Source: an uncultured archaeon (GTDB lineage: Archaea; Asgardarchaeota; Heimdallarchaeia; Heimdallarchaeales; Kariarchaeaceae). Taken from it: a DNA stretch of 64,000 nucleotides. Positions within the stretch are counted from its first letter, which is position 1. Every line of letters starts with the position of its first letter. A program made the translations under genes and the position numbers. The notes under the pieces were generated by a model. The model was not told the origin of the DNA. It saw nothing but the letters and a program-made list of their open reading frames with translations, and did not search any database. Shown here piece by piece: positions 19,220 through 43,305 of this stretch. Where the stretch lies: the NCBI GenBank assembly GCA_964645535.1, contig CAZYCQ010000007.1, forward strand, positions 1 through 64,000. The letters run 5' to 3'.

Positions 19220-19324
19220 TATTTTTCACCCTCCCATCAAGAGACTCTCCCCCTGATAGGTAATTAATCCTCTACCTCTTTCTATAAAAATTTTTCCTCA
19301 CACGGGAGGTGATATTCCCATGAA

Positions 19325-20272
19325 TCATTGATTCCCACGCGCCCTTATCTCCTGTGGAAGCAAAGCAACATACAACGTCTCAAGAATTGGTGCCTCACCT
19401 AAACGTATGACATCTCCCACCAGATAATCCAATTCCGAAGGAATTCCGCCAATGATATCTCTTTGCAATGAAGTTGTGCCATCTGAAGGAAGGTTGTCAA
19501 CCCATTGTAGATATCGATCTGCAAGGCTGTCCTCAACCCTTGCCCCTTGTGAACGGGCAACCGCAGTGGTCTCCAGAAAAACCTCCCGGATTAAGGATCG
19601 AACCTCTGGAATGGCTCGCATCTCTCCGAAGGTAGCCCGTGTGACACTTCCAACAGCTCCCAACGGACCAATCAGGATCAGTTTCTCCCATTGTGCCGTT
19701 CGAAAATCATCGTGAAGCCTCGTCTCAATCCCTGATGTGGTGAAAAGCCCTCCCACCTTTTCAACTCTCTCCGTCAATCCTCCTTCAATCTCCCCCAACT
19801 CAACAATGCCTGAACCAAGATGGCGGATCACGCCTGTCGTCTCCTTGAAACTGATCACCTTACAGAACCCACCAAGCACCCGTTCACCAAAACGATCCCT
19901 GAGAAAACGTGTGGCATATACCCCGTTGAGCAGGGGCAGAATCAAGGTGCCTTCATGCATCGAGGTTTCCATTCCCACAATTGCCGTCTCAAGATGCTGA
20001 CTCTTCACGGTAAGAATGATGAGATCCGCTTTTTCTCCAAAGGAATCTGTCACCTTCACTTGCAAAAACAGATCCCCCTTTGGACTAAAGACCTTCAACC
20101 CATTTTTCCGCAACACCTCGGCGGATCGCGGTGTAGCCACAAAGGTCACATCATGTCCATGCTCCGCAAGACGTGCCCCGAAATATCCTCCGACCCCTCC
20201 CGTACCCACAACCAGTATCTTCACACGTTTCCATCTTGGAGATGACCTAAAGAGCCTTCGTCCTATAGTCAA
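19325..20272 (-). CDS. panE: 2-dehydropantoate 2-reductase
   Basis: KILVVGTGGVGGYFG, TVKS, PLLNG, WEKL, TTSLQRD...ELD motifs; true start probably GTG at 20224. Confidence 0.9.
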   Translation of the reverse strand: MTIGRRLFRSSPRWKRVKILVVGTGGVGGYFGARLAEHGHDVTFVATPRSAEVLRKNGLKVFSPKGDLFLQVKVTDSFGEKADLIILTVKSQHLETAIVGMETSMHEGTLILPLLNGVYATRFLRDRFGERVLGGFCKVISFKETTGVIRHLGSGIVELGEIEGGLTERVEKVGGLFTTSGIETRLHDDFRTAQWEKLILIGPLGAVGSVTRATFGEMRAIPEVRSLIREVFLETTAVARSQGARVEDSLADRYLQWVDNLPSDGTTSLQRDIIGGIPSELDYLVGDVIRLGEAPILETLYVALLPQEIRARGNQ

Positions 20273-20273
20273 A

Positions 20274-21605
20274 TCAATGATCGCTTAAGTCTCGCAATTG
20301 GTGCAGATAGCTCCGAACCTCATCAATGTCCTCAAAATTACGATCCAAGACCGTGAATTCAAAGACCCTGTGTATTGTCTCAGAAAGCTCGTCCAATGCC
20401 GAAATGTCCAATGCCAGATCTGCCAGCTCACGGATGTTCCGAACAATGGCCTTCTTCAGCATCTCCGAATTGATGTTCCGAGGATCATACAGCTCCGTGA
20501 TGTCATCAATCGCCGAACTTGGATTGATCGCATTGAAATTCAAGATCTGGCTCGCCAAATCCGAATGTCCATAATTCTCCAAGTCATAGATCAGACTCAG
20601 AAGCGCACTGGCAAGTGTCGCATAGGTCTCGCTCAGATCCATCAATCCTTCATCCTTCTTTCGATACGCCAATTGCGACATGGTCCACATGAAAAATTCC
20701 ATCGGATCACGAGAAAGACGATAGAGTTCATTCACAAACACATTCCCTAGGTCTTGCAGGGGTGTGTTCGCCTCAAGATCCTCAAACAAATAAATCAGCC
20801 ATTGCGTCAACCCCCGTGCCAACTTCGTCTCCAAATCCATCAATACATCCTCCGAAGTTACCACCGTCTTGTGGGGATTGCCCGGATCAGGCTTGCTCAA
20901 TGGCCACTCCCTCACCTCCGAAAGCAGATCCGTCAGAAAAAGAAAATAGTTGAACAACTGGCTCGTCTCCGCAAAATCCGCACTCAAAAGATTACGTAAC
21001 TCCGATGAAAAACTTGCAAAAAAACGCAACGTATTCTCATCCGTAATTTTCTGGATATTCGAACGGATCTGATCACGAACCTCGAAAAGAACATTCACAT
21101 CGGTTCCCTCATGCTGAAGCATCTCCCGCCAAAGATAGGAACCCTCCAATGCACGAAAACTATCCCAGATCTTGCCACGAAGAGTTGACAACTCGTCCTC
21201 GTGAATCTCCTCCTCCGTAGGAATCTCATCATCAGATACCGAAAGCACTTTCTCCAATTTCTCCTGAAGATTCTCCAACTCCACCCGAAAAACATCCTTC
21301 AACTTGATCAAGTCATCCGCAGAAAGCATCGAATGGTTGTTCACCATCATATCCAATGTATCCCGGAGCTCTTGGATAGCACGCTTGACATCATCCCCAA
21401 AATACCGCTCCTGCGCATCTGAAAGATTTGACAGCAACTCCCTCACCCGCACCAACACCGGACGCATAACCACCATCCCCTCCCCATACCTGCCTCCCCC
21501 CTGAAATATTCTCGCGCGGATCTGAAATGAAGAATGAGTCTCCAGATTGTCATACAGGGAAACCACTTCTTCCATCAAATCCGCTAATCCTACCATGAAT
21601 GCCAA
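20274..21605 (-). CDS. Hypothetical acidic alpha-helical protein
   Basis: 443-aa ORF co-oriented with and tightly packed against panE and the MFS gene; no motif recognised. Confidence 0.65.
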   Translation of the reverse strand: MAFMVGLADLMEEVVSLYDNLETHSSFQIRARIFQGGGRYGEGMVVMRPVLVRVRELLSNLSDAQERYFGDDVKRAIQELRDTLDMMVNNHSMLSADDLIKLKDVFRVELENLQEKLEKVLSVSDDEIPTEEEIHEDELSTLRGKIWDSFRALEGSYLWREMLQHEGTDVNVLFEVRDQIRSNIQKITDENTLRFFASFSSELRNLLSADFAETSQLFNYFLFLTDLLSEVREWPLSKPDPGNPHKTVVTSEDVLMDLETKLARGLTQWLIYLFEDLEANTPLQDLGNVFVNELYRLSRDPMEFFMWTMSQLAYRKKDEGLMDLSETYATLASALLSLIYDLENYGHSDLASQILNFNAINPSSAIDDITELYDPRNINSEMLKKAIVRNIRELADLALDISALDELSETIHRVFEFTVLDRNFEDIDEVRSYLHQLRDLSDH

Positions 21606-21630
21606 TCGATTTCATGCCATATATAATTAT

Positions 21631-22914
21631 TCACAGCTCCGCACCCTCTTTCTCGCGACCACGCTCCTCAAAATAAATGTAAAAGGAAAGCACCAACGCA
21701 ATCAAGGCAAGAACCATGATCATCAGAAACGATGCAGAAAGACCTATGTTGTCCTTGATCCACCCAAATGCCAAGGGTGTCAGAAGTGAAAGAACCTGAC
21801 CCAAGGAAAATAACGCCCCAAACAACTTCCCACGCTGCTCCTTCTCCACACGATCCGCAAGCAATGCACTCCCTGCTGGAGAACCAACATAGTAAAACGC
21901 CAACAACAGAAAATAAAACGTACTGAACGAAACCAGATCCGCATAATCCGTCAAATACACCAACCCAACTGAAGCAAAAGCAGACCCCACCGAAGAAACA
22001 ACCAAGGCAACCCTAGGACGTGTCCGATCCGACAGAAAACCACCAACCAAGGTAAACATCGACGCAAAACCCAAAACCAAGGCTGTAGCAACCGTCGACT
22101 CATTCTTCGTCAAATGAAGATAATCCTCATACAACAAGGACGTAAATACTGATGCCGTCCGGAAAAAACTCGAACGCAATGAAATGAATAACAAAGGAAC
22201 CAAAACCAACCCTGAAAAAATGAACGAAATGTCAAAACTATGTGAAACAACATCTCCGTCCATCGTTACCATAACCTCTCCATCCGATCCCCTACGCCCA
22301 CTCCAGTTGGTTCGGTCAAACATCCCTGAAACATACCCCAGAATACCCAAGACAAAAAGAAATACCAACCCTCCAATCCCAATCACTCGAGCAACAACCT
22401 CCCAACCACCAACCAATAAACCCAATCCGGAAAACACTATCGGAGAGACCGCTGTCCCCCCCATCCCAATCGCCATATTCAAGGACAATGCCTTACCCTT
22501 GTCATCCTCAAACATCTCCGTTATTATCGCCAACACTGGTGGATGAAACGTAGATGCACCAACTCCCATCAAGGTAAAACCAAGATATAACTGCCAAACA
22601 GATACCGAAAAGGAAAGAAACAACCAAACCAATGACATCAAAAACAAACCTGACAAAATCAAAAAATAACGAAATGAACGAAAACGATCACTGAAAAAAC
22701 CAACCCCAACTGATAACGTCGTCATCACAACTATAAGGGATGTCCATAACAAACCAGCATCAGTATAACTCAACCCAAAATCACTACGAAAAAACAAAAT
22801 CAACGTAGGCAACATAAACATCAACAAATGATTCAACAAATGAAAACACAAAATCATAACATAGTCCTGACGACGAAGTGACATCAAATCCATACCACAA
22901 ACCAAATCAACCAT
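21631..22914 (-). CDS. MFS transporter
   Basis: GFFSDRFR and GGFLSDRTRPR motif A; about 12 TM; GASTFHPP. Confidence 0.85.
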   Translation of the reverse strand: MVDLVCGMDLMSLRRQDYVMILCFHLLNHLLMFMLPTLILFFRSDFGLSYTDAGLLWTSLIVVMTTLSVGVGFFSDRFRSFRYFLILSGLFLMSLVWLFLSFSVSVWQLYLGFTLMGVGASTFHPPVLAIITEMFEDDKGKALSLNMAIGMGGTAVSPIVFSGLGLLVGGWEVVARVIGIGGLVFLFVLGILGYVSGMFDRTNWSGRRGSDGEVMVTMDGDVVSHSFDISFIFSGLVLVPLLFISLRSSFFRTASVFTSLLYEDYLHLTKNESTVATALVLGFASMFTLVGGFLSDRTRPRVALVVSSVGSAFASVGLVYLTDYADLVSFSTFYFLLLAFYYVGSPAGSALLADRVEKEQRGKLFGALFSLGQVLSLLTPLAFGWIKDNIGLSASFLMIMVLALIALVLSFYIYFEERGREKEGAEL

Positions 22915-23386
22915 TTAATTAATATCCCCGTTCAACCCAAATCAAAATGAATAAATCAATAAGCAAGGTTTTTTCCCCAACAGACAAGGTGGAAACAGAA
23001 CCTACAAAATCCAACAACAATATGCCAATACATATATCACATAACCAAAAAATACCTCTTGAATAACCTCAACATCAAATAATAACCAATACACATCATT
23101 CATATCAAAATTAACTTAATCCCAAAAACAATCAATTACCCTATCAACCATTCAAGAAATATACTTCGAGCAAAAAAAATCCCAATTCAACATAAATACA
23201 CAATACATTCCACCTACCAAAAAAGATCCATCCATCTCCCTCAAAAAAATCCGCCAACTTACAACATCAAACACAAAAGCATCCTCCAAAAATTCAACAT
23301 CACAAAAACAACGTTAAACCCCCCCCCATTATCAACTACCTTCAGAACCTTAAAATATAGAAAAAAAACACTCAAACCCGAAGTTT

Positions 23387-23399
23387 CCGAAAATTATAA
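23387..23399 (+). promoter_or_regulatory. BRE+TATA promoter of the CAU tRNA
   Basis: CCGAAAA-TTATAA about 50 bp upstream of the mature tRNA 5' end. Confidence 0.6.
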
Positions 23400-23445
23400 T
23401 TACCCCAAAACATATCAAAAATTGCCGAAAGGAAAACAAAACATT

Positions 23446-23519
23446 GGGCCTATAACTCAGATGGTCAGAGTGGCGGGCTCATAACCTGCAAGTCCTGGGT
23501 TCAAATCCCAGTAGGCCCA
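23446..23519 (+). tRNA. tRNA with CAU anticodon, probably tRNA-Ile2 (agmatidine-modified) rather than Met
   Basis: Cloverleaf: GGGCCTA/TAGGCCC acceptor, ACTC/GAGT D stem, GCGGG-CTCATAA-CCTGC anticodon arm, CTGGG-TTCAAAT-CCCAG T arm, discriminator A; no intron, no encoded CCA. The GGGCC acceptor resembles archaeal Ile tRNAs. Confidence 0.9.
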
Positions 23520-23970
23520 TGTCCATTTTTCATTACTTTTTGGTATTGGAAATTGTTTGAAACATGACCTTTTCCACCGATCAAAATATAGTATCATTCT
23601 TCCAGCTTGTGGAATTTTCAGGAATTCATTGTATATTCCTATTTGCAATTTACTGATTTCTCATATCCCAAGGTAGAATTTGTTCATTGGTCTATCAGGA
23701 ATGATTTAATTCATATGGCAAATTGTTATACCCTTTCGAACATGATTGCCATTTTTCTTGTGGTAACTCCGATATTTCCTAAAATTTCATACAACCAACT
23801 AAACTCACGAAGCATCTCTTGTTTGGGGATTGAATCGATTACTCTTTCAACCATTTTTCGATATACTATTACAGGGTCAATTTCTTCCTTTGATTGGTCT
23901 ATTGACTTTCTTCATTTAATTGGTCGCTTATGCTACAAATTGGTTGATATGATTGAATGGATTTTTTTTT

Positions 23971-26523
23971 TTAATTTCTTGGTCCGAGCAACCTATCTCC
24001 ATTGTAATGGATCATATGGGTTGGAAGTTCAGCTATCCAAACCTCGGTTTCAAATGCAAGTTTATCGGCATATTTTTTGAAATCGGATAATGAGTTGAAA
24101 GCGGTGACAAAGATCAATTTTTCCTGAATATGGGCGAATATGGATATGAGTTGTTGACGTCGTTTTTCATCAATGGGCCCATGGGTGACGAAAGCTTCAA
24201 ACAAGAAAAGCCAATCTTTTTCTTGGTCATAGATGATTACATCCGGTAATTTGCTATGCACATCAATTTCAATACCGAGTTTTTTGCAGATTTTTTGATC
24301 CCAATACTTGTTTTTTCCTGTGTCATCTACAAAAACGACGATAGGCTTTTTGACAAAATTGGTCGCGGTGAATTTTTCGACTATATCCTTTTGAAGTTCG
24401 CTATGCTTTCCCTTTGAAATTTCTATGACGATAGGCTTTCCTTCGCTGTTGATCAAATTTACAGGCAACAAATTTCTGGGTCTTTTGTTTTGGGTCAATT
24501 TGGATTTGAATTCTATGAATTCCGCTGATTTTTTGTGCCATTCAGGAGTATTGAATGCCCTAATTGCGTTTAATGCTTGAGGAGTAAGCCTATAATTGTT
24601 GTAGCTACTGTTTATGGCTCGATCGGGCTTGTCTTCATTCTGAATGACCAGTCCTTGTTGGATAAAATGATGAAGGCATTTTCTCCTTATTTCCTCTCGA
24701 TCTTTGAAAATATAGTCGAATCGATTTTTGGCACGTTTAATAATGGAAAGAAAGTCATTTTTCTCGTTATTTATGGTATAGGGTTTTGAAGAAGCCAGAG
24801 CCCAATCTCGATGCTTAATTCCTGTCAAGGTCAGCAAGATTATTGCCGCTTTTTCATCTGTAATCTCATAGGTGATTTCTAGATCTTTTAAAATTCGGAT
24901 TGCATCGTTGACTAATTGATTTATTTCATGTTTTTTCAAACAATTCCAGGATGCGATTAGTTCATTTATACGTAACTGCTGATCTGGGGGAATTTCACCC
25001 AATTTTTCCAAGGTCATTGAATCCGGGAAGGGAAGGTATTTGAAATCAGTTGAATTTATTTGTGTACTTCCGTTAATGGCTCTGATGTAATTGTCGACAT
25101 AATTTGAATTCAGGTAATATAGGAGACCGAGGGCGAATTTTTTTGATTTTGCATTCAGGTCAATGAAATTGATTTTGTTGTCGAAAGTAATGTATTGGAT
25201 ATGGGGAAAATCTTCTTTGGTGATCAACGTACAGATTAGCCTAGTATTGTCCTCTTTGGTGGACATTCTCCGTATCAACAGATATGTTCCAACAGGGACA
25301 CGATACTTCGTGTAGTCTTTTTTCAAAAACTGTACCTTTTTTTTCAGGTTCTTTCTTGGAAAATTCAATTTTAGGGGGAAAATATGGTTTGCCAAGATCA
25401 GTGGATAGGCATCAATGGGCTGTTTGCCGAATTGCTCAAGCAAGTGGAAATGATGGTCGGATTGCGGATTGATCAACCATTTTCTGGTTCTATGTTGAAC
25501 CACCTGACCTGTAGAAACAGTTAGGAGGAGATCTTTAAGCGATTTTGAATTGGAGGGTCTTTTCAATAGGCTATCCACTTGCGATTTTGTTGATGGGATA
25601 CAGATGAGGGAGTCTTCTGGGAGAATCACATTTTCATATGGAATCTGCTCTTTGAATAGGGATTGGACCGAATGGTTGATGGAAATGGTTTCGACAATTA
25701 CGGATGTTGCCGTAATTTTTTTTTGGGTAAAGATTACAATGTTTTCTTGTAGCACTTGATCTTTGGAGAAAGCCTCATCTCGTTCCTCCACAACAAAAAT
25801 CTTGAGTAAGGCATTGTCTTTTAGGAATTTTTCCCGAAAGTCTTTAAAGTAAAACCCGTTGGTGAAACTTCTGGGCACAATTCCAATTAGATATCCGTTT
25901 TTGGAGAGGAGATTCTTGCACAAGCCCAGAAAGGCAGTATAAAGGTTGTTATGTCCGCCAGTTAATTTCTTGATTTTTTCTAATCGGGGGTGGTTATTTT
26001 TGATTTTTTTGTAAGGTGGGTTCAATATGATTGCTTCGAATTCGCCATTATCTGAGGTATCTTGCAAGTACGGTTCAAGTGACTTTTTTCTCTCAAGGAG
26101 GGCTATTGAAGAATCTACGAAGTCCTCAATGAAGATTGAAAAATTCAGTTGACAGTCATAATTTTCCTTCAAGTATTTTTTCAAGACCATAAGGGAATCT
26201 CTGAGGGGTTGTTCCAAAGTTTTGTCAATTTCATACGCAGTGGTCGCGATGGTACGACCTTTGTAAAAATCCGAAAATTTCTCAACACAGAAAATGATAA
26301 GAGAAACCAGAAGATTTCCCACTCCCGCTGCTGGATCAAGAAAGGATCTTGGGGGTGATTCAATGTTGCAATTATTGAGAATGAAATCGGTCAGCTTCCT
26401 AGGAGTAAAATATTGGCTATATTTTGACTTATAGGCTTGGGTTCTTGTTGAACTTATTTCCTCTGCCAAGGAATGAACATAATTGACCGGATTTATCTCC
26501 ACTAATGGTTCCAATCTTCTCAA
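23971..26523 (-). CDS. Fused restriction-modification protein: N6-adenine MTase plus BsuBI/PstI-family endonuclease
   Basis: FLDPAAGVG motif I and NPPY motif IV; C-terminal HSKLPDVIIYD..WLFLFEA..HGPID..AFETEVW..HMIHYNG.RLLGP matches the BsuBI/PstI C-terminal domain. Confidence 0.85.
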   Translation of the reverse strand: MRRLEPLVEINPVNYVHSLAEEISSTRTQAYKSKYSQYFTPRKLTDFILNNCNIESPPRSFLDPAAGVGNLLVSLIIFCVEKFSDFYKGRTIATTAYEIDKTLEQPLRDSLMVLKKYLKENYDCQLNFSIFIEDFVDSSIALLERKKSLEPYLQDTSDNGEFEAIILNPPYKKIKNNHPRLEKIKKLTGGHNNLYTAFLGLCKNLLSKNGYLIGIVPRSFTNGFYFKDFREKFLKDNALLKIFVVEERDEAFSKDQVLQENIVIFTQKKITATSVIVETISINHSVQSLFKEQIPYENVILPEDSLICIPSTKSQVDSLLKRPSNSKSLKDLLLTVSTGQVVQHRTRKWLINPQSDHHFHLLEQFGKQPIDAYPLILANHIFPLKLNFPRKNLKKKVQFLKKDYTKYRVPVGTYLLIRRMSTKEDNTRLICTLITKEDFPHIQYITFDNKINFIDLNAKSKKFALGLLYYLNSNYVDNYIRAINGSTQINSTDFKYLPFPDSMTLEKLGEIPPDQQLRINELIASWNCLKKHEINQLVNDAIRILKDLEITYEITDEKAAIILLTLTGIKHRDWALASSKPYTINNEKNDFLSIIKRAKNRFDYIFKDREEIRRKCLHHFIQQGLVIQNEDKPDRAINSSYNNYRLTPQALNAIRAFNTPEWHKKSAEFIEFKSKLTQNKRPRNLLPVNLINSEGKPIVIEISKGKHSELQKDIVEKFTATNFVKKPIVVFVDDTGKNKYWDQKICKKLGIEIDVHSKLPDVIIYDQEKDWLFLFEAFVTHGPIDEKRRQQLISIFAHIQEKLIFVTAFNSLSDFKKYADKLAFETEVWIAELPTHMIHYNGDRLLGPRN

Positions 26524-27028
26524 TCTTCTTTATTCCCCCTCCAATAAAAAGTCATACATCATCACAATAGTGGGTTTTCGAGGAAATTTGGTCGAATTCA
26601 TGGAAAAGGGAAACATCATGACGCTTGTACATTCGTCTGGCTTTGTTTTTTCAAGTTCAACATAAAACCGAATGTAGGAAGTAAACGTAATCCCTAGTTG
26701 GTTTTGATTGGCCAAAGTGAATGGTTGGTGAAGAGAGATGCCTCTTTTGGGCATTGAAGAAAGGCTTGTGCAATTTCGAGGTGAATGTGCAGTCTTCCTT
26801 TGATACGGTTGGTGAGTTTTCATTGAAATCTCTCTGTATCTGCAATGAATTAGCAAAATCATTTTGTCCTTTAAGGGGTGTAATTTGGTGGTTCTTTCCT
26901 TTTCTTTCATTGTGTGACCCTTATTTGCCGAATGAATTATCGTCTCATTCCTGTATTCTTGATATTGTTTTTCTCACAAATTTGGCAAATTCTCGAAAGT
27001 TTTATATGTTTTTTTTTCGTACCTTCTC

Positions 27029-28363: not shown

Positions 28364-28373
28364 GGTGAAATGC

Positions 28374-28811
28374 ATGAGGGAAAAGGCATTTTTGGCCTGG
28401 GTATTCCTTACCCTTATTCTAGCCACACCTCCTGTAGCATATCATTATTCCATTCCCCAATCAAAAGGGGAGGTGATTCTGGATGAGACCCGTGCCGTCT
28501 CCGCAGGTGAGGTGGTCGTGTACAACCTAACAGAACCCCTCCTGCCAGCAATTATGGGCTGGCGAGTGGATGGATGGGCAACCGCAGTCTTGGCCACCGT
28601 TAAATCACTTGTAGGCAATCTGACATTATTTCAGGCTTGTTATTCGACCAGTTTGTCAGATCTTGAGCAGAACTATAGGGAACTTTGCGAAGGGACGCCA
28701 AAATCTATTGACACAAACTCTTTCAGAGACTATATTGGGGTTTCATACTTCATAGTGCTGGTGTTTGGCACGCCAGACATCTATCATATCCAGATCGTTT
28801 TTCAAAGATAA
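28374..28811 (+). CDS. Membrane-anchored small protein, paralog 1 of 3
   Basis: GAGGTGA SD directly after the S8 stop, ATG at 28374; N-terminal TM; EVILD, YNLT, TVKSLVGNL, two Cys, FGTPD. Confidence 0.75.
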   Translation: MREKAFLAWVFLTLILATPPVAYHYSIPQSKGEVILDETRAVSAGEVVVYNLTEPLLPAIMGWRVDGWATAVLATVKSLVGNLTLFQACYSTSLSDLEQNYRELCEGTPKSIDTNSFRDYIGVSYFIVLVFGTPDIYHIQIVFQR

Positions 28812-29747: not shown

Positions 29748-29840
29748 GGGTGACGTATGCATTGGGTGGTTTATAAGTACACCTTGGATGTCTCCTTTTT
29801 CTTCTAAATCGTGCTTTTTGACTGGTGTTTCATGACTTTT

Positions 29841-30305: not shown

Positions 30306-30428
30306 TTCAGGTATGCGCATGGGTTCAGTTGTTAATAAGTACACCTTCCCGTTTTGATTGTTTCCTTGTCACTTTGAATGTTCTCTGTTTCCGCAAAGTT
30401 TATTGTCTTATCAATCGAATCAACCATA

Positions 30429-32518: not shown

Positions 32519-32576
32519 GTTGACATCTCTTCTCCAGTGAACAGATTAAAGTACTTGACTGGTATGAATCCTATAT

Positions 32577-33776: not shown

Positions 33777-33904
33777 ACGCCATTTCAATAGGCTCCAAAT
33801 GACTTGGGTATGCGTCCATCAATTCTGCTCGTTTCATGATAAACTGCTAAATTCCTTGAAATTACAATTTATGGGTCGATTTTGAATTAAATGTGTTGTT
33901 CAAT

Positions 33905-36900
33905 CTATATCTTTCTTTTCTTTTTGATGATGACTACTGTTGCAAAGCCTGCAAGTGCAATTTGCCAATCAAGGGCCGGCAGTCCGAATTCAGGTGCGGC
34001 AAGCGAGGATGTTCTTCCATTGCTCACAAGGATGGTGATGCTGACTGTTGCAGAATTCAAACTGGTATCGACTGCCTTGAAGGTGAAGGTATATTCTCCA
34101 TCAACCACCTGTGTTGAATCCCAATCGTACACGTAGTTCCCTGAGGAATCCTGTTGCATGACTTCTTGGGATCCGTCATGGAGCTGGATGGTAACTTGCT
34201 GAAGTTCGACGTCATCAGATGCTGCCACTTCAAAAGTGACCGTTCCGCTTACATTTGCTCCATCTGCTGGATTGAGGACGGATATGGTCGGTGGTGTTGT
34301 ATCTGTGGTTGGAGGGGCAATACCTATGGTTGTCAGTATGCGTGTCTCAGATACGACCGTATGCTCGTTTTCGTCGACATCGACTGCAACCACACTCCAT
34401 GATAGGTTACCTAGTGGCAGATTTCCGAGGTTCAGGGTGATTTCATAATTTCCTGTTGTATCGTTGTAGGTCATCAACAGGGACTGTCCACTGATTTCAA
34501 GACTGACTGACTTGAGACCCCAATCATCCGTTACGGTTGCTTCAAATTTCATCATGGGTGTTTCAGTGACATTGACGGTTGTTCCATCAGCTGGGCTGAT
34601 CAATGAAATCGTTGGGGGATTGCCGGTCTTCAGGTTATCAATTTTCACCCGGATTGTGGATCTGCTCCAATGTCCATCCATATCAAGTACTTCTACTGTG
34701 AAGGAGATGACTTGGTTCTCAAAGCCTTGTGTCAGGGTATCGAATTGAACACTGTACTCGCTCACCTCCATGCCGTTAACAGTCGTCACGGAAATGGGTT
34801 CGACTGCATTGCCGCCGAGATCCTTCCAGAAGATGACGGCGTATGCACCCACATCATCGGTCACTGTGAAATTGATGTTGGCGATTCCCTCAATGGTACT
34901 GTCATTAGTCAATTGCCAAGTTATGTCTGCTGGTTGATAGCTTTCATTGTAGTTGTCAATGACAATGCTTCCCCCTGCAAATCCTTCATTTCCGGCATTG
35001 TCTCTGATCCGGACATCGAAATTCCATCTCCCGTCCGGTAATGTGCTCGTATCAAGGAAGGTCTCCCAAACTTCATTTTCTGGTGTTGAGTAGGTGGTGT
35101 TTGGTGTGAACCCTACAGGCACATTGAACAGGGGATGGTCTGCTGGAGCATCATCTCTGAACAAGGTTCCTGTAACATTGTTGATGCCACTGGATGGGAA
35201 TCTTGGTACCCAATCAGTTCCGTTCCAGTATGAGTCTCTTGAGTCCCAAGTTTCAACGGCAAAACGTTCAGTTCCATGGACTACATTGTTGCTTTCATCA
35301 AGATAGTCAAATTCATCATAGAAGGTAGATCCTCCACTTCCGCTAGCAATATACATGTAGCCCCATGGCTCCTCCAGATCCTCATTGTCGGTAAGGAATG
35401 TGTTGTTGAAGGTTATTGATGCACCTGTGAAGTTTCCAACGACATTTCCTTGCTCATCTGTTAATTTGGGATTTTGCGTATATATGCTGATGTCGTATGC
35501 TAGGTATTGCAGTTTCCATTGATCTACCCATCTGCCTGATGACCATCCAATGCCATTGTTTGTGTCTGGGACAAAGGTCACATTTTCCAGATCTCCTTGG
35601 AAAGGAACATGAACACTGATGTGAAATTCCTCTGTTTCATTGTTCCATGGAATCGTTCCTCCTAAGGAGAAAATAGGTAGGTCAAACAAATCAATGGTGA
35701 ACAATTGATTGACCCCTTGGGGGAATGAAGGCACTGCATTGGCGATTGCATCATCAAGAGCGTAGAAACCTAATGAAATGTATGAAGCAAGTCCCCAACG
35801 ATCGGGTGTCATCCACCATGTAAGATATCCCACCTCAGTTAGATTGATGGCTTGCCAAGATGCAGAATGGGAATAGACATATGATGAAGTAATCATATTG
35901 ATCAATTCTGTCTGATTGACAGATCCATACATTGTCACTTTGGTGGCATCAACCCATCGATCTTTTATCCAATATGTTGTATTGTCAATATAATTTGACG
36001 AGAATGTAACGCCAAGGGATTCAAGCTCATTCATGATTTTTTCTGCTGTGGCGTTTGCGGCACTTGTTCCGGTGGAACTGTTGAAATACACATCCATCCA
36101 CATTCCAGAACTTCCTGGAATTGCAGTCTTGAGGTGATTTGCGCGGAAGTTGACGGCAAGGACTGATGAATAGAGTGAATCATTTCCGACAAGAAGGTTT
36201 TGAGTCAAACCAGCTCTGTCCTTTCCGCGTACCTCCAATTGGGTGTTGACGTATCCTTTTCCATCCACTCTAAACCATAGGTTGTCGACATTCCTCCAGC
36301 TATATTGGGTGAATGTATAATCAAAACCGATAGTAATGTCAGAATAATTTCCTCCTGAAAGCTTGGCATTTATGGACCAAGCGTCATATTGGTTTTGTTG
36401 TTCCGGTGATGGATGGTAGTCAATATAGACTTGAGAGTCACTGCTGTTGCCGACAGAATAACTGACATTTTCCACATTTGGGAGGCTGTGGGAAAGGGTC
36501 AAATTTCCTAAGTTTGACGGGGCAAGCCAATCGACTCTTGCCAATTCCTTGACAGAAAGAACATGTCCTCCTATCTGATTCTGAATCTCATCTTGATAAT
36601 GAATCCCAAATGAACCAGCAATCTCATTGCCTTCCCTCCAAAACGAGACATCAATTCCTGTGGATGGAAATGGATCGATAGTGGCTGCCAATCCTCCATT
36701 TTCTCGTGGGATGGATCGATTGATGATCTCTTTGAAATTTGTCCAATCCACATGTCCTGAAAATTGAACTGTGGTTATTTGTACCCATTGATTACCGTTC
36801 CACTGGTCATAGCCTGATGAACCTTCCATCACGATATCCCATGCCGCAACGTAGCCACTGAAGAAATTGACCATCTGATTTGCCAAGGATTCAGCTGAAG

Positions 36901-37246
36901 CAGGATCATTGGTCTCGAATTCCAATGAAATCCACAGGTTGCGGTCTGTTGGACTGTTGGATTGATATGTATTGAGATAGCCCCACCTGAAACTGCTGAA
37001 TTCCGGAGGCGAAAGGAGTGAATCCATATCCAACTGGTCGAGTTCTACCTCTGCTCCTTCAAGACGAACATCGGTATAAATATATCCATCTGGACTGACT
37101 CCTGTATAGATATTCTCGTGATACCACAATGTGGTCTGTTGGCTCTTAATGGAGACCACTTGTGCTGACTGTTCTCCCACCGCTGGTGCAGTGAAGATAA
37201 ACATAGAAATTACCAATACAGAAATGATTAGCTTTGCTTTCATCAT
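33905..37246 (-). CDS. Large surface glycoprotein with C-terminal Ig-like domains and PEFG-type anchor
   Basis: Signal peptide; DTTPPTISVLNPADGANVSGTVTF Ig repeats; APEFG plus TM plus KKKRKI. Confidence 0.82.
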   Translation of the reverse strand: MMKAKLIISVLVISMFIFTAPAVGEQSAQVVSIKSQQTTLWYHENIYTGVSPDGYIYTDVRLEGAEVELDQLDMDSLLSPPEFSSFRWGYLNTYQSNSPTDRNLWISLEFETNDPASAESLANQMVNFFSGYVAAWDIVMEGSSGYDQWNGNQWVQITTVQFSGHVDWTNFKEIINRSIPRENGGLAATIDPFPSTGIDVSFWREGNEIAGSFGIHYQDEIQNQIGGHVLSVKELARVDWLAPSNLGNLTLSHSLPNVENVSYSVGNSSDSQVYIDYHPSPEQQNQYDAWSINAKLSGGNYSDITIGFDYTFTQYSWRNVDNLWFRVDGKGYVNTQLEVRGKDRAGLTQNLLVGNDSLYSSVLAVNFRANHLKTAIPGSSGMWMDVYFNSSTGTSAANATAEKIMNELESLGVTFSSNYIDNTTYWIKDRWVDATKVTMYGSVNQTELINMITSSYVYSHSASWQAINLTEVGYLTWWMTPDRWGLASYISLGFYALDDAIANAVPSFPQGVNQLFTIDLFDLPIFSLGGTIPWNNETEEFHISVHVPFQGDLENVTFVPDTNNGIGWSSGRWVDQWKLQYLAYDISIYTQNPKLTDEQGNVVGNFTGASITFNNTFLTDNEDLEEPWGYMYIASGSGGSTFYDEFDYLDESNNVVHGTERFAVETWDSRDSYWNGTDWVPRFPSSGINNVTGTLFRDDAPADHPLFNVPVGFTPNTTYSTPENEVWETFLDTSTLPDGRWNFDVRIRDNAGNEGFAGGSIVIDNYNESYQPADITWQLTNDSTIEGIANINFTVTDDVGAYAVIFWKDLGGNAVEPISVTTVNGMEVSEYSVQFDTLTQGFENQVISFTVEVLDMDGHWSRSTIRVKIDNLKTGNPPTISLISPADGTTVNVTETPMMKFEATVTDDWGLKSVSLEISGQSLLMTYNDTTGNYEITLNLGNLPLGNLSWSVVAVDVDENEHTVVSETRILTTIGIAPPTTDTTPPTISVLNPADGANVSGTVTFEVAASDDVELQQVTIQLHDGSQEVMQQDSSGNYVYDWDSTQVVDGEYTFTFKAVDTSLNSATVSITILVSNGRTSSLAAPEFGLPALDWQIALAGFATVVIIKKKRKI

Positions 37247-38309: not shown

Positions 38310-39485
38310 ATGAACTTCAAAAGAAACAGGATGCTGTTCTATCTCCAATCTGTTGATGTACTGGGAATGTCCATCCCAACCATCTACCTCATTTGGCAGA
38401 GGGCTGGACTTGACCTAGCTGACATCCTCCTACTGCAGGGTATATTTGGCCTGTTTGTGCTCCTTCTGGAGTATCCTTCAGGCATCCTTGCAGACAGGTT
38501 CGGAAGACGAAACGCAGTTGCAATCGGTAAAGGATTCACCGCCTTGGGTCTCATAGGCTACATGATGGGGTCTTCCCTTGTCCACTTCGTCTTCATCGAA
38601 CTGATCTTTGCTGTAGGACTTGCGGCAGTTTCAGGTGCCAATATCGCCTTCATTTGGGATTCTGCCATCGAAGCAGGAGAAGAACCCCATGCCAAGGAAA
38701 TCGTCAACACAGGGATCATGATCACCACCGGAAGCAACATGACCCTCCTGTTGATTGGGGTCGGACTGATGCTTATCAACGCCTACCTCCCAATCTATAT
38801 CGGCATCGTTTATCTCTGTGTCTTGGCAATTGTCCTCCTTATGGGAGATGAACCCAAAAAGGTGACTCTTCTCTCCGCTGGAAAGATATTGAAGCAATCA
38901 ACCAAATACCTCGGTCAGCGAAAATTCATTGAAGTTGTTGTCATCTCGGCAATCACCATGATCTCCTTGAGAATCGCCTTCTGGGCATACATCCCCAAAC
39001 TTCAGGACAATCAAGTCCACGAGACATGGTACAGCGTCGTGCTCATGATGGCGAATATGGTGGCTTTCAGCACTGCAGCACTCCTGAGGAGAAAAAAGAC
39101 ATATTCATACCAATCAATGATGATTGCCTTTGCTGCTGCTGCTGTAGGTATAGGGATGTTCATCTTCAGGCTCAATGTGCTTGGGGTCATAATTGCCATA
39201 ATACTCCATCAGGTGGCAAGAGGGATTATTCCAACCCTTGCGGCCGTCATGGTCAATGAACTTGCAGATTCAGAGGTTAGGGCTTCTGTTCAATCACTGA
39301 AAAGTATGGTGACCAATCTTGCATACTTTGCAATTTCCTCACTGGCTTTCATTCCATTGGTTAAACCCCACATCATGATCCTGAACTTTGCCGTGGTCAT
39401 GGTCCTCATCCTATCCGCCCTGTTTCTCAGGGTTGCTGAAAGTAGCAGGAAAACAGTCAATCCAATTCCCCACTGGAAACCTTAA
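38310..39485 (+). CDS. MFS transporter
   Basis: EYPSGILADRFGRR motif A; about 12 TM; RASVQS. Confidence 0.87.
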   Translation: MNFKRNRMLFYLQSVDVLGMSIPTIYLIWQRAGLDLADILLLQGIFGLFVLLLEYPSGILADRFGRRNAVAIGKGFTALGLIGYMMGSSLVHFVFIELIFAVGLAAVSGANIAFIWDSAIEAGEEPHAKEIVNTGIMITTGSNMTLLLIGVGLMLINAYLPIYIGIVYLCVLAIVLLMGDEPKKVTLLSAGKILKQSTKYLGQRKFIEVVVISAITMISLRIAFWAYIPKLQDNQVHETWYSVVLMMANMVAFSTAALLRRKKTYSYQSMMIAFAAAAVGIGMFIFRLNVLGVIIAIILHQVARGIIPTLAAVMVNELADSEVRASVQSLKSMVTNLAYFAISSLAFIPLVKPHIMILNFAVVMVLILSALFLRVAESSRKTVNPIPHWKP

Positions 39486-39509
39486 TTCCTTTGAAAGAAC
39501 ATACAACTC

Positions 39510-40112
39510 ATGTCAAAAAAAAGTTCAAAGAAACTTGAGCAGATTGACTTAACCCAATTCCAAGAACCTTTGACGCAAGATCAGACACAGAAGCTTCTGG
39601 AACCCCTGAAAAAACGCTTCGAGGGCAATCAACGCGTTGAGGGGATCAAATGGGAGGACATTGAAGACAGGCTCAATAAGGCTCCAGATAAGCTGCGGAT
39701 CCTTCACGCGATGGAGATAACTGGAGGGGAACCTGACGTAATCGGCATCGAAAATGGTGAAATCATCTTCTGCGATTGCTCACCCGAATCTCCAAAGGGA
39801 AGAAGAAGCCTGACCTACGACCGAGAAGGGCAAACGGCCCGCGAAAAGAAAGGGATCTATCCCCCCGGAAATGCAGTCGGCATGGCCGAAGCTATGGGTA
39901 TCGACCTCCTGACTGAGGAAATGTACTTCCAACTCCAAAATGTCGGAAATTTCGATTCAAAAACATCAAGCTGGCTGAAAACTCCTGCAGAAATCAGAAA
40001 GTTGGGCGGTGCCATTTTCGGCGACTTCAGGTTCAATAGGGTATTCGTCTACCATAACACTACACAGAGCTTCTATAGCTCCAGAGGATTTCGAGGGATG
40101 CTGAGAGTATAG
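39510..40112 (+). CDS. DUF4256 family protein
   Basis: METGGEPDV, DCSPESPKGRRSL.YD, KTSSWLKTP..IRKLGGA.F.D.R..VFVYHN..SRGFRG. Confidence 0.85.
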   Translation: MSKKSSKKLEQIDLTQFQEPLTQDQTQKLLEPLKKRFEGNQRVEGIKWEDIEDRLNKAPDKLRILHAMEITGGEPDVIGIENGEIIFCDCSPESPKGRRSLTYDREGQTAREKKGIYPPGNAVGMAEAMGIDLLTEEMYFQLQNVGNFDSKTSSWLKTPAEIRKLGGAIFGDFRFNRVFVYHNTTQSFYSSRGFRGMLRV

Positions 40113-40135
40113 ATCCTCTTTTCCCCACTTCTTAC

Positions 40136-40243
40136 TTATGCCAACCTGTAAAGAAGAAATTTGGCTTTCTCCATCTCAATTGCCTTCTGGAGATCAATCT
40201 TCCTCTTCAAGTCGGTAATTTTGGTTCTGTCTTTGTTTTCCAT
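40136..40243 (-). CDS. Small 35-aa protein (not in ORF track)
   Basis: MENKDRTKITDLKRKIDLQKAIEMEKAKFLLYRLA*, preceded by SD-like AGGTG; fills an intergenic gap. Confidence 0.5.
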   Translation of the reverse strand: MENKDRTKITDLKRKIDLQKAIEMEKAKFLLYRLA

Positions 40244-40365
40244 GTATTACACCTGAGCAATTCCTGCTCATACCAATATACTCACGCCTATAATATATCC
40301 AATCTCCAATCCCAATATGCATTTTTCCAACACTGCCGTACATCCTCCCATCCAAAAGTGTCCGC

Positions 40366-41148
40366 TTAAACCCTATGGTGAAACCGGCGAAGAATTATTA
40401 TCGGAAGGCCAATCATGGTCCAGATAGGAAATGGGCTTATGTCGGTCGAAGCAGTATAATCAGAATCAAGTACTGAAGTAATCGTCTTTATGACCTGTAC
40501 CTCAATCATATGCTCCGTAGGCAGATCTGTCTCGGAATCAAATACCCCAATGATCCCACGGTCTTCATACAAACGAAGGTATGCACCCTCTGGAACTGAA
40601 TCCGCATAGGGTACCAATACCTCCGAAGTCCTTCCGTGATCCACCCAGACCTGTTCCAAAATACTGGTGTTCCACTCTAACACCAACCAGCCAGGTCCAC
40701 CACTAATGACATCATGTGCAATCACACCTCCACTTGAAACCTCCACTGAAGCTATGCCGGAGCTCAATCTCTCTGTCACCATAAATGGTGGTGCCAGAAC
40801 GGATCCGTTCACAGTCACTGGAAAATCCTTCGTCAGCTCCCACTTGCCAACAAGACCAAGATCCTGGTGTAGCATCGCATACATCGTGTCCGTAACCAAA
40901 GAAAGATCCAGTTTGACCACCAAGGATTCCGTCACCCCTGGAAACAAACGCTCAATCCCAACAATCTCTCCCGGTTCACCATTAATGTCATTATGAATGA
41001 CCATCCATGCAGGACCATCATATTCTATCCGGTCTATGACAATAATATCATCCACCAAGGGTTGGGAAACTACCACCACCTCCTGACCAGGTGCACTTAT
41101 CATTGGGAAAATCAATAGCAAAGGCAAAAGAAAAACAAGCCGGCTCAT
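40366..41148 (-). CDS. Surface protein with two repeated beta domains and C-terminal anchor
   Basis: Signal peptide; internal duplication (GPAWMVIH..YAMLHQD.G / GPGWLVLE..YLRLYED.G); SPFP plus TM plus RRFHHR. Confidence 0.7.
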   Translation of the reverse strand: MSRLVFLLPLLLIFPMISAPGQEVVVVSQPLVDDIIVIDRIEYDGPAWMVIHNDINGEPGEIVGIERLFPGVTESLVVKLDLSLVTDTMYAMLHQDLGLVGKWELTKDFPVTVNGSVLAPPFMVTERLSSGIASVEVSSGGVIAHDVISGGPGWLVLEWNTSILEQVWVDHGRTSEVLVPYADSVPEGAYLRLYEDRGIIGVFDSETDLPTEHMIEVQVIKTITSVLDSDYTASTDISPFPIWTMIGLPIIILRRFHHRV

Positions 41149-41241
41149 AGATTAACAGATGGAAGGTGGCAAAAAAGGATATTGGTGCATAAAAAAATTG
41201 GTTTATTTAAAAAGAAGTTAGATGTGAATATGAGAAAAATA

Positions 41242-41316
41242 TGGGCTCGACCGGATTTGAACCGGTGACCCCCTCGGTGTAAGCGAGGTGCTATAACCAG
41301 GCTAAGCCACGAGCCC
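41242..41316 (-). tRNA. tRNA-Val (UAC)
   Basis: Reverse complement GGGCTCG..CCTCG-CTTACAC-CGAGG..ACCGG-TTCAAAT-CCGGT-CGAGCCC-A; no intron. Confidence 0.95.
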
Positions 41317-41384
41317 TTTTTCAGTACCTTTTGTATGATCGGATAATTTCGTATTCGATCTAAATTTTGTTGGGGTTGTTTTGG

Positions 41385-41399
41385 TTTAATCTTTTTCGG
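41385..41399 (-). promoter_or_regulatory. BRE+TATA promoter of tRNA-Val
   Basis: Minus strand CCGAAAAAGATTAAA, similar to the promoter of the other tRNA. Confidence 0.5.
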
Positions 41400-41512
41400 T
41401 AGTTCTGTTTTTTTTCAGTATGAATTTGTATTTTGATCATTCATTTGTTTTGTAAAATAAAGAAAATTTTTTAGAAGTGAATCTTTTTTTTGTTTAATTC
41501 GGGGTGCATTAA

Positions 41513-42568
41513 ATGAGCAAGTCGCGGCATTTTTTCTCTACTGGTGATTCTCGCATTATAAACCTAAAATTTTCTTCAGGGGTGATGAACCTGACCATTT
41601 CGTTGAACCGATTTGGGGATTTTCCGTTTCGGCAATCGTTGATGCTGATACGTCCATTTCACATTGTGCATCAACTGGCTATTGTATTGCTGGTTGTCAG
41701 TCTGAAGGGGTACTTCCCTCCTTGGTATATTTTTTTGAAGGCATGGTTGATGCTGTTTCTTTTGATGCCATTTCTGTTCGGTTTGAATGACCTGATGCAT
41801 CGATTGGAAGACCGACGGATGGGGCGGGATCGTTTGTTCACGTCAGAATCGATTTCCATGATTTCTGTTGGCTTTTTTTTGGGTTCGGTTTTTCTGGTGA
41901 TGGCTTTGATTGCTTTGGAATCTGGTCTGATGACGTTTGTCTGGTTGCTATTGATGATTCTTTGCGGTCTTTTGTATGGTTATTTCAAGCATGAAAGAAG
42001 GACATTTTTGACCTATATTTTTCGGATGTTGTCTGGCGTTACCTTTTATCTGGTGGTTTCAATGTATTTCGGTTTTTCATCCATTGATGGCTGGGTTTCG
42101 TTAGTTGTTGGTGTTCTAGACCTTTTTTCACATGTTGCGGGTGATTTGCGAGACTTTCCGATGGATGTTGCGGGAGGTGTTCGGACATTTCCGGTGGTTT
42201 ATGGGGTAGATAGGACTGAACGATTTATATTTGGATTGCAATTGCTTGGATTGTTTCTAGTTGGCATAATCTTCCGGTATGGATTTTGGTTTTGGTTATT
42301 TATTTTGGTGGGATGCAGTCTAGGTTGGCTGACATATTTTGTTTTGAGGGAAGGCAATGCCTATTCTTGGCAGCATGCTGCGTTTCATGGTCAAAAGATT
42401 TTGATATATGTCTTGGTCGGTGTTTTTCATGGCGTATCCATCTGGTTTGTTCCTTTGTACATGATGGGATGGTTTGTTTCCTATTGCTTGTATCTTTGGG
42501 CTGATGACCGGTTGAGTGGCTCTTCTGGGCTTTTGGGCTATGTGCTGAGTAATCCTTTGTGTCTGTGA
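41513..42568 (+). CDS. UbiA-family prenyltransferase
   Basis: LNDLMHRLED and DLRDFPMDVAGGVRTFPV Asp-rich motifs; polytopic membrane protein; start uncertain. Confidence 0.8.
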   Translation: MSKSRHFFSTGDSRIINLKFSSGVMNLTISLNRFGDFPFRQSLMLIRPFHIVHQLAIVLLVVSLKGYFPPWYIFLKAWLMLFLLMPFLFGLNDLMHRLEDRRMGRDRLFTSESISMISVGFFLGSVFLVMALIALESGLMTFVWLLLMILCGLLYGYFKHERRTFLTYIFRMLSGVTFYLVVSMYFGFSSIDGWVSLVVGVLDLFSHVAGDLRDFPMDVAGGVRTFPVVYGVDRTERFIFGLQLLGLFLVGIIFRYGFWFWLFILVGCSLGWLTYFVLREGNAYSWQHAAFHGQKILIYVLVGVFHGVSIWFVPLYMMGWFVSYCLYLWADDRLSGSSGLLGYVLSNPLCL

Positions 42569-42648
42569 ACTCGTTGGAGATCGGTTGTTTAAGTTTCCTG
42601 TTCCTAACCATTTGATTTTTATTGGTTTTATTTAATCGAAGCTTAGAG

Positions 42649-42969
42649 ATGTCATCAACCGAGGAAATTTTGAAAGAGATCGTTGAGCTGGAGGAGCAAA
42701 GCTCAAAACTTGAAGAGGAAGCCCAGTTGGAGGCTCAGAAGATCATAGAGAATGCCAAGGCAGAAGCGGAGGAGATCATCAAGAAGGCTCGGAAAGCTGC
42801 TGAATCGGAGATCGACCGTTTGGTTCGCGAGGAAGAGGCCAAGAGCAAAGATCTTCTTGCCTCCATAGACAAGGAGATTGCAGAGCAGAAAGAAGCCCTG
42901 CGAGCAGCTCAAAAGGCAAAGGGGAAGGAAGCAGTTGCAGCTGCCATGAAAATTCTGTTGGGTGAATAG
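42649..42969 (+). CDS. A/V-type ATP synthase subunit H (G-like stalk)
   Basis: E/K/A-rich coiled coil (EAQKIIENAKAEAEEII), directly upstream of subunit F. Confidence 0.7.
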   Translation: MSSTEEILKEIVELEEQSSKLEEEAQLEAQKIIENAKAEAEEIIKKARKAAESEIDRLVREEEAKSKDLLASIDKEIAEQKEALRAAQKAKGKEAVAAAMKILLGE

Positions 42970-43305
42970 ATGAGCCGCGCGATTGAGCGTTCCCGAATTG
43001 TAGGTCTGACTGATGAAATGACCTCATTAGGTCTTCGTTTGGCTGGAATCAAGAACGTGTACAGTGTTCCTGAAGGAGATAATGGTCGTGATCTTCTTCG
43101 TAAGCTTGTTCAGGATGATTCCGTTGCGGTTCTGATCATTACGGAAAAATACGCCGAAATGAACCGGCGTATCTTGGATCGGGCTGCATTAAGACCTTGG
43201 CCGGTAATTGTTGAGATTCCTGGACCTGAAGGTAAGATGGAACGGGAAACCAGTACCTTGAAGACTTTAGTGAAAAACGCCCTTGGCATTGAATTGGAAT
43301 TGTAA
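42970..43305 (+). CDS. A/V-type ATP synthase subunit F
   Basis: DEMTSLGLRLAGI..VAVLIITE..PVIVEIP..LVKNALGIEL. Confidence 0.88.
   Translation: MSRAIERSRIVGLTDEMTSLGLRLAGIKNVYSVPEGDNGRDLLRKLVQDDSVAVLIITEKYAEMNRRILDRAALRPWPVIVEIPGPEGKMERETSTLKTLVKNALGIELEL

Follow-up and report, generated by a model that had tools for sequence, protein, structure and literature searches.

At bacterial and archaeal replication origins (oriC) and at the jumps of human N-domains, the composition of a DNA strand changes from A/C-rich to G/T-rich across a point; the human jumps are sharp, have a single polarity and are followed by a gradual return between one jump and the next. Mutagenic fork restart, break-induced replication and immunoglobulin hypermutation leave strand-coordinated mutation tracts with a fixed starting point that die away within about 1–10 kb. 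Vertebrate mitochondrial DNA is copied by strand-displacement replication, with the second-strand origin lying inside a tRNA cluster. In mitochondria, a strand rich in G and T is ascribed to deamination of single-stranded DNA (ssDNA), both A→G and C→T (PMC3269012). Mutagenesis at eukaryotic tRNA genes, including AID/APOBEC targeting in yeast, extends to about 40 nt of flank (PMC6130373). The stretch analysed here, 64,000 nucleotides from an uncultured archaeon of the Kariarchaeaceae (Asgardarchaeota, Heimdallarchaeia; assembly GCA_964645535.1, contig CAZYCQ010000007.1, positions 1 to 64,000; hereafter the window), contains two tRNA genes, tRNA-Met and tRNA-Val, each of which lies at the centre of a mirror-like skew that reaches several kilobases in both directions. 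Searches of the literature on tRNA genes, strand asymmetry, archaea, R-loops and recombination-dependent replication yielded no published description of a kilobase-scale mirror skew at tRNA genes.

Contig C7, of which the window forms the first 64 kb, is 90.7 kb long and belongs to a genome of 3.62 Mb, 176 contigs and 41.3% GC, in which aragorn finds 43 tRNAs, 10 of them with introns. A switch score, i.e., the keto contrast between the 1 kb to the left and the 1 kb to the right, was calculated for every genome position (s.d. 0.073). Skew at third codon positions was expressed as KT3, (G + T − A − C)/N, and as KT3(+) when read on the + strand, gene by gene. The genes were called as simple longest open reading frames (ORFs) and are partly wrong (e.g., in the ribosomal-protein operon), but the main results do not hang on these calls alone, because analyses of all sites and of spacers agree with them.

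A preliminary description of the window had reported that the + strand passes from A/C-rich to G/T-rich at both tRNAs. This is borne out by a switch score of 0.57 (z = 7.9 against all genome positions) with its maximum at 23443, next to tRNA-Met(CAT) (23445..23520, + strand; aragorn; Rfam RF00005, 67.9 bits), and by a score of 0.52 (z = 7.2) with its maximum at 41328, next to tRNA-Val(TAC) (41242..41316, − strand; aragorn and Rfam). The coincidence of switches with tRNAs holds across the whole genome: in 3.6 Mb, each of the 12 strongest AC-to-GT switches has a tRNA gene within 60 nt, and no GT-to-AC switch of equal size was found anywhere in the genome. When only neutral-type sites (third positions and spacers) are counted, 15 of the 16 switches that score at least 0.5 fall on a tRNA and the sixteenth lies 730 nt away. 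The sign of the skew is the same at 39 of 40 tRNAs (p = 7e-11), and the mean 1-kb amplitude is 0.32 at tRNAs vs. 0.00 (maximum 0.27) at gene junctions far from tRNAs, for which 413 divergent, 102 convergent and 708 tandem junctions served as controls. The 413 divergent promoters show no footprint (mean −0.002, maximum 0.26), none was found upstream of the 23S rRNA gene, and no keto skew was found in the ribosomal-protein operon. Given these bare loci, the footprint is not a product of generic transcription. The mean skew profile fades over about 5 kb; upstream of strongly skewed tRNAs, the fading can take up to about 8 kb. On contig C116, a switch without an annotated tRNA (3.48 kb) led to a tRNA-Trp(CCA)-like gene on the − strand (about 3430–3575) with a long intron and a T-run after the gene, which had been missed by aragorn and by relaxed Rfam searches.

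The skew follows position relative to the tRNA rather than the coding strand. The genes that flank tRNAs show no favoured orientation (left and right strands −+ in 9 cases, +− in 10, ++ in 13 and −− in 6), and sense-strand KT3 within 1 kb of a tRNA is +0.24 in genes pointing away from it and −0.19 in genes pointing toward it. At four-fold degenerate sites near strong tRNAs, the sense-strand composition is A.19, C.17, G.27, T.37 in away-pointing genes and A.36, C.34, G.10, T.20 in toward-pointing genes, compared with a background of A.30, C.23, G.16, T.31; the strand running 5′→3′ away from the tRNA is therefore G/T-rich, whichever strand codes. The toward-pointing genes include several with strong Pfam matches, namely MoeA, a class I/II aminotransferase, a LanC-like protein, a GT2 glycosyltransferase and the restriction gene of the window. 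At neutral-type sites near strong tRNAs the outward strand has A.17, C.10, G.28 and T.44, the background being reached by about 6 kb; relative to background, A changes by about −.14, C by −.08, G by +.10 and T by +.11, which would be the expected product of net A→G and C→T change, its direction being read from composition. Intergenic and four-fold degenerate sites carry the strongest skew. The first two codon positions move in the same direction as the third, so that protein composition is dragged along; GC3 (GC content at third codon positions) is raised in strongly skewed genes. The four-fold sites showed no clear deaminase-like motif in the sequence context of the depleted bases. The preliminary description named two outcomes that would refute it, loss of the skew after control for coding strand and amino-acid content and a lack of coincidence with tRNAs elsewhere in the genome, and neither occurred: the control leaves the skew in place, strongest at four-fold sites and with opposite sense-strand signs in away- and toward-pointing genes. 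The skew is a long-accumulated positional mutational footprint, not a coding or selective feature, and the suggestion that tRNA loci are sites of strand-asymmetric mutagenesis is supported by the four-fold sites together with the genome-wide coincidence with tRNAs.

The polarity flips inside the tRNA gene itself, with A/C-rich sequence up to position −1 and G/T-rich sequence from position +1. The A/C-rich state spans the transcribed 5′ leader, downstream of a shared BRE/TATA-like box, and tRNA introns, taken as a neutral probe of the flip point, have an intermediate composition (keto skew −0.01 over 278 nt) that does not help to place it. T-run terminators follow directly 3′ of the tRNAs. The equal polarity at the two oppositely oriented tRNAs of the window, to which the preliminary description gave weight, is real; it is less informative than it seems, since an AC|GT pattern reads the same on the opposite strand and the result is expected of any two-sided process. 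The orientation of the tRNA sets which side is stronger, not the polarity: over 1 kb, the skew reaches 0.21 upstream and 0.13 downstream (p = 8e-4), and both window tRNAs conform. How a tRNA is oriented with respect to the long-range skew has no relation to this asymmetry (rho 0.09, p 0.65, n = 30). The outer edges are fairly sharp in several footprints, 1.4–3.5 kb out. The drop in skew between neighbouring genes is 0.18 within putative operons vs. 0.16 across their boundaries (p = 0.56), and the decay therefore ignores operon boundaries. Near-identical promoter boxes lie 45–85 nt upstream of tRNAs for the same amino acid on different contigs (Val on C5, C7 and C55; Gln on C7 and C16; Met/Lys-type on C7, C11, C101 and C6), and AACTACCGAAAAAGATTAAA precedes all three tRNA-Val genes.

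Upstream of tRNA-Met lies a G-depleted spacer of 530 nt (22915..23444; A251 C141 G29 T109), in which an exact count confirms the single G reported for 23281–23340; a BRE/TATA-like box stands within it about 45–58 nt ahead of the tRNA, and the same box type is found before other tRNAs. The left, upstream-side footprint of tRNA-Met (17669..22914) covers four − strand genes, assigned by Pfam as unknown, ApbA/PanE, unknown and MFS. From 17.7 to 22.9 kb, their KT3(+) values are −0.15, −0.24, −0.49 and −0.60, i.e., A/C richness climbs toward the tRNA, and the 1-kb window at 22.5 kb ranks second in extremeness among 6,980 genome windows. The gene at 20274–21605 has a sense-strand KT3 of +0.49 here vs. 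−0.04 to +0.09 in its homologues from 7 relatives. On the 3′ side, a segment of low skew and low GC (23521..28811; KT3(+) +0.06 to +0.14, GC 0.37–0.38) is a candidate younger insert, and Pfam places in it a fused methylase/restriction gene (23971–26523, − strand) and a subtilase. The fusion, directly 3′ of tRNA-Met, encodes 850 aa with an Eco57I-type methylase domain and BsuBI/PstI-type restriction endonuclease domains. Beyond the segment, a G/T-rich block covers genes of both strands (29316..37246; KT3(+) +0.30, +0.24, +0.09, +0.30, +0.25, then +0.11) and may represent the former right flank of tRNA-Met, which the segment would have pushed outward.

At tRNA-Val, the left side is the downstream side and carries the weaker footprint (38310..41241), over an MFS gene (+), a DUF4256 gene (+) and a DUF7282 gene (−) (Pfam), with KT3(+) values of −0.12, −0.17 and −0.33. 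The strong right, upstream-side footprint (41317..42568) consists of a T/G-rich spacer (41317–41512; A44 C16 G35 T101), followed by a UbiA gene with a KT3 of +0.46; this spacer contains the promoter box CCGAAAAAGATTAA at 41386–41399 on the − strand. In the genome-wide ranking by skew, the 1-kb window at 41501 stands in the top 15. The footprint then fades along genes of both strands (42622..48074; KT3(+) +0.12, +0.25, +0.17, +0.13, +0.09, +0.10). A codon contrast between the MFS gene and the UbiA gene had been described, and its direction stands, although the bias in the MFS gene (38310–39485) is modest, with third positions of C 0.34 and T 0.23, compared with G 0.33, T 0.40 and C 0.13 in UbiA. 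Far from both tRNAs, a + strand ORF (2–6310) spans over 2,100 codons and is cut off by the left edge of the window.

At the other end, the window reaches the onset of a further A/C-rich flank (62537..64000). The enrichment in C and A that had been described for 62.5–64 kb is weak before 63.7 kb (KT3(+) −0.01 at 62537–63646) and real from there on (−0.22 at 63705–64415, then −0.26 and −0.43, before +0.18). The switch predicted from it just past the window exists at 66287, 2.3 kb beyond, with a score of 0.49; the stable-RNA gene that was expected to accompany it does not appear, as neither aragorn nor Rfam, relaxed thresholds included, finds an RNA gene at C7 66.29 kb or at a similar centre at 20.8 kb of contig C52. 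The C7 switch falls at the 14-nt overlap of two + strand ORFs (66008–66737), which encode a cupin (KT3 −0.43) and an unknown 146-aa protein (+0.18), and the next tRNA on the contig is tRNA-Gln at 69.69 kb. Besides C52 20.8 kb, three weaker sites are centres without a recognisable RNA gene. Another centre, moderate in strength and without a tRNA, lies in the EF-1alpha gene (C36 17639–18931), whose third-position skew rises from about −0.1 to between +0.3 and +0.5 about 270 nt into the gene, near the DxxG motif; over about 3–4 kb, the genes to its left are A/C-rich and those to its right G/T-rich.

The interval 66.3–69.7 kb on the 3′ side of tRNA-Gln resembles the segment 3′ of tRNA-Met in its weak skew, and holds five genes without a significant Pfam match. 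Beyond both weak segments (23.5–28.8 and 66.3–69.7 kb), the skew is strong and increases toward the segment border. One idea is that younger DNA was inserted at the 3′ ends of the tRNAs and pushed the older, skewed flank outward, which at tRNA-Gln would also account for the 66.29-kb switch without an RNA gene. No att-type repeat of at least 12 nt of tRNA-Met, tRNA-Val or tRNA-Gln was found at the candidate borders, and Pfam finds no integrase domain in the flanking ORFs. Genes for a PAPS-reductase/DUF3440 protein and a ParB-N-domain protein adjoin tRNA-Gln (69858–71928) and, with KT3 values of +0.60 and +0.53, are among the most strongly skewed; we take the pair to be IbrA/IbrB-like.

The amplitude of the footprint varies with region and lineage. 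It is weakly related to the codon demand of the tRNA (rho 0.33, p 0.04) and more strongly to regional GC3 (rho 0.54–0.57, p about 1e-4; for GC3 measured 4–15 kb away, rho 0.54, p = 4e-4). tRNAs in low-GC3 regions (C1, C9, C10, C12, C32, C50 and C59) are nearly unskewed, those in high demand included, and Leu-GAG, Ala-GGC and Ala-TGC are high-demand tRNAs without a footprint. The mean 1-kb tRNA amplitude is 0.18 in G002 (same genus), 0.21 in G007 (same family) and 0.18 in G015 (same order, a complete genome), with 90–100% of tRNAs positive in these three genomes; in G003 (same genus, 10 contigs) it is 0.03, with 55% positive. Twenty-two other genomes of the phylum, each represented by one tRNA, have a mean of 0.08, and three of them exceed 0.3. 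Thus, the footprint is widespread in the order, patchy in the phylum and absent from one close relative. UDG (PF03167) is present in the four genomes with a footprint (G000, G002, G007 and G015) and not in G003, an anecdotal distribution among five related genomes that runs opposite to a simple idea of lost repair, and that idea was set aside. EndoV (PF04493) occurs only in G015 among the five, and none of them has a reverse gyrase match above the cut-off. At the level of strains, an 8.1-kb contig of GCA_003696825.1, which begins about 95 nt from tRNA-Val, matches 41412–49522 of the window at 99.89%, and an assembly of SRR7905022 is identical to this region over 2.6 kb. The 9 single-nucleotide polymorphisms (SNPs) in the 8.1 kb, 1 of them inside the footprint, are too few for a mutational spectrum or density.

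Set beside the systems described above, the locus shares the A/C-to-G/T change across a point with replication-origin switches, and the sharpness, single polarity and gradual return with human N-domain jumps. It differs from them in its range, about 5 kb rather than hundreds of kilobases, in the number of sites, about 40, each on a tRNA gene, and in a signature that is unlike the long-range skew of the genome and has no Orc1/Cdc6 gene or origin recognition box (ORB) nearby. With the asymmetry between the H and L strands of vertebrate mitochondrial DNA it shares a G/T-rich strand and an effect that is graded along the DNA and greatest at synonymous sites (PMC3269012); one-strand G/T enrichment at synonymous sites with a gradient, the hallmark of that type, is present here. 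The differences are the cellular chromosome, the two-sided mirror at many dispersed tRNA genes and the decay over kilobases. We know of no displacement replication in the setting of this organism. Transcription-associated mutagenesis at eukaryotic tRNA genes is similar in its mutation hot spots and deamination-type spectrum, and its link to activity may have a counterpart in the weak relation to codon demand, although several high-demand tRNAs have no footprint; it is confined to the transcribed unit and its immediate flanks, whereas the footprint here extends 2–5 kb on both sides, flips polarity in the gene and leaves the rRNA and ribosomal-protein loci that were checked bare. Fork restart, break-induced replication and hypermutation offer a fixed start, strand coordination and a fade over kilobases; these are somatic or experimental events, in contrast to an evolutionary equilibrium of composition.

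Position dependence, polarity, range, independence of the coding strand, specificity for tRNA genes and variation among lineages are demonstrated by these data. They require a process that starts at tRNAs, moves outward on two sides, marks the outward strand, is blind to gene direction and operons, varies with region and lineage, and is not produced by high transcription alone. We tentatively favour, at somewhat less than even chances, short-range outward unwinding with DNA synthesis, recurrently started in tRNA genes; the single-strandedness and the involvement of DNA synthesis are the parts of this reading that we infer. The process would start repeatedly inside tRNA genes and travel outward for a few kilobases both ways, and on each side the strand running 5′→3′ away from the tRNA would be handled differently, gaining G/T and losing A/C. 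Forks that stall at the tRNA transcription complex may restart there, or an R-loop may trigger strand-displacing synthesis. The outward strand could be left single-stranded, either as an exposed lagging-strand template or as a displaced strand, and would then be prone to deamination; alternatively, it could be the newly made strand, with G/T-biased misinsertions.

Several observations are counted in favour of unwinding with synthesis, besides the anchoring at tRNA genes, the independence of coding strand, the flip inside the gene, the bare control loci and the disregard of operon boundaries. The anti-correlated GC and AT skews are the pattern expected from ssDNA deamination (PMC3269012), the stronger upstream side is what head-on fork stalling would give, and the amplitude follows regional GC3 more than codon demand and is nil for tRNAs on the contigs with Orc1/Cdc6 genes. 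Other points weigh on the opposite side. The whole case for synthesis, single-strandedness and stalling is built on base composition. The side asymmetry is independent of the long-range skew, while a simple polar fork barrier predicts dependence if that skew marks fork direction; if R-loop-primed synthesis acted alone, the upstream side should not exceed the downstream side, yet it does. In other organisms, 23S rRNA and ribosomal-protein genes strongly impede forks, but here they are unskewed, and the high-demand tRNAs Leu-GAG, Ala-GGC and Ala-TGC are left unexplained in their lack of a footprint. tRNAs are lacking at a few centres, namely the one within EF-1alpha and that at C7 66.29 kb, and the sole strain comparison shows no excess of recent mutation.

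The alternative that survives best, although we consider it doubtful, is outward transcription only, without DNA synthesis: tRNA promoters would be bidirectional, R-loops would form, and the non-template strand, which is the outward strand, would deaminate. In detail, read-through of the terminator downstream and untranslated antisense RNA upstream would both form R-loops. The polarity fits, since the outward strand is the non-template strand on both sides, and the side asymmetry follows the orientation of the tRNA and not the background skew; T-run terminators after tRNAs would weaken the downstream side. The weak link to codon demand, the moderate centre within the highly expressed EF-1alpha gene and the precedent of transcription-associated mutagenesis at eukaryotic tRNA genes (PMC6130373) also speak for it. 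However, the transcribed 5′ leader stays A/C-rich to −1, and the most transcribed loci that can be checked, the 23S rRNA gene and the ribosomal-protein operon, are bare. Several high-demand tRNAs are without a footprint, and regional GC3 is a better predictor of amplitude than codon demand. This explanation also needs antisense RNAs of 2–5 kb whose effect exceeds that of sense transcription in the genes along their path, and the known mutagenesis at tRNA genes spans tens of nucleotides, not kilobases (PMC6130373).

As its other alternative, the preliminary description proposed that tRNA loci act as recurrent replication-initiation sites, with the switches marking bidirectional origins, and this part finds no support in that form. 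That tRNA genes are true, regularly firing bidirectional origins seems to us improbable, even though the AC-to-GT polarity fits and sharp jumps occur only in the upward sense, like those of human N-domain origins, and even though complete Heimdallarchaeia genomes have no simple two-replichore GC-skew pattern (PMC11291895). The footprint, present at about 40 sites, is gone by about 5–8 kb and does not persist to a termination zone. In addition, the genome carries a long-range skew of about ±0.1 at neutral-type sites that keeps its sign over at least 100 kb (e.g., on C2, C4, C5 and C8), which we assume to reflect replication; the contigs are too short for the profiles around Orc1/Cdc6 genes to relate it to replication. 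This long-range skew is of the purine type, its GC and AT skews sharing the same sign, whereas the tRNA footprint is of the keto type, with opposite signs. Cdc6_C (PF09079) matches only C50:17.0–18.2 kb, C50:8.1–9.3 kb and C12:~38 kb, and none on C7, in agreement with the statement that no cdc6/orc gene lies near the switches; the tRNAs on C50 and C12 have no footprint. A search for ORB-like repeats returned only low-complexity chance repeats in 22800–24000 and none in 41100–41600, and one relative of the same genus (G003) has no footprint at all. The 23.9-kb contig C50 carries both of its Orc1/Cdc6 genes together with the start of the 23S rRNA gene and tRNA-Arg(CCT), shows no keto skew, and has the lowest GC3 of the genome (0.28, in a range among contigs of 0.28 to 0.55).

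A mosaic of foreign DNA, in which elements integrating at tRNA genes bring their own bias, e.g., from rolling-circle or single-stranded replicons, is very improbable. tRNA genes are classic integration sites, and a restriction gene by tRNA-Met and five Pfam-less genes by tRNA-Gln would suit such elements, but these candidate inserts are the least skewed parts, and the most skewed genes include housekeeping types (MoeA, aminotransferase, ApbA, MFS and UbiA). The polarity is equal and two-sided at 39 of 40 tRNAs, the att repeats and integrase that would be expected were not found, and the unskewed homologues of 20274–21605 partly indicate that the skewed flanks are resident core genes. Finally, an artefact produced by the coding strand, by the amino-acid content of membrane proteins or by codon selection, which the T-rich sense strands of the two most skewed genes of the window (the membrane-protein genes for MFS and UbiA) and the uniform − strand of all genes left of tRNA-Met might suggest, is refuted by the four-fold sites and spacers being most skewed, by the opposite sense-strand skew of toward-pointing genes, by the difference according to position between the MFS genes at 38310 and 21631, and by unskewed homologues elsewhere. 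Roughly a fifth of the probability remains for some explanation not yet thought of.

Outward unwinding with synthesis could also be extended beyond a local mutational process. Under this extension, which we regard as unlikely, the tRNA genes of the Heimdall group, together with a few loci such as EF-1alpha, would be dispersed, Orc-independent sites at which DNA synthesis is initiated or restarted from transcription complexes or R-loops.

Strand skews are a standard sequence read-out of replication and transcription, and the strongest skews of this genome fit neither in its usual form. The footprint pushes the codon usage, and even the amino-acid composition, of neighbouring genes, and it can mislead the prediction of origins, the detection of horizontal transfer and phylogeny; conversely, skew switches may help to find missed tRNA genes, as in the case of tRNA-Trp. 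The pair of congeneric genomes without (G003) and with (G002) the footprint provides a handle toward the responsible factor. If R-loops or antisense transcription are the cause, bidirectional tRNA promoters would be pervasive and the local mutation pressure very strong. If DNA synthesis starts or restarts at tRNA genes, the finding would bear on the still unresolved replication of Asgard archaea and on the origin of eukaryote-like, many-site, transcription-linked initiation. Should the less likely, extended reading be true, transcription-linked initiation at many sites would exist in the closest prokaryotic relatives of eukaryotes and would be legible in their genomes as kilobase-scale mirror skews.

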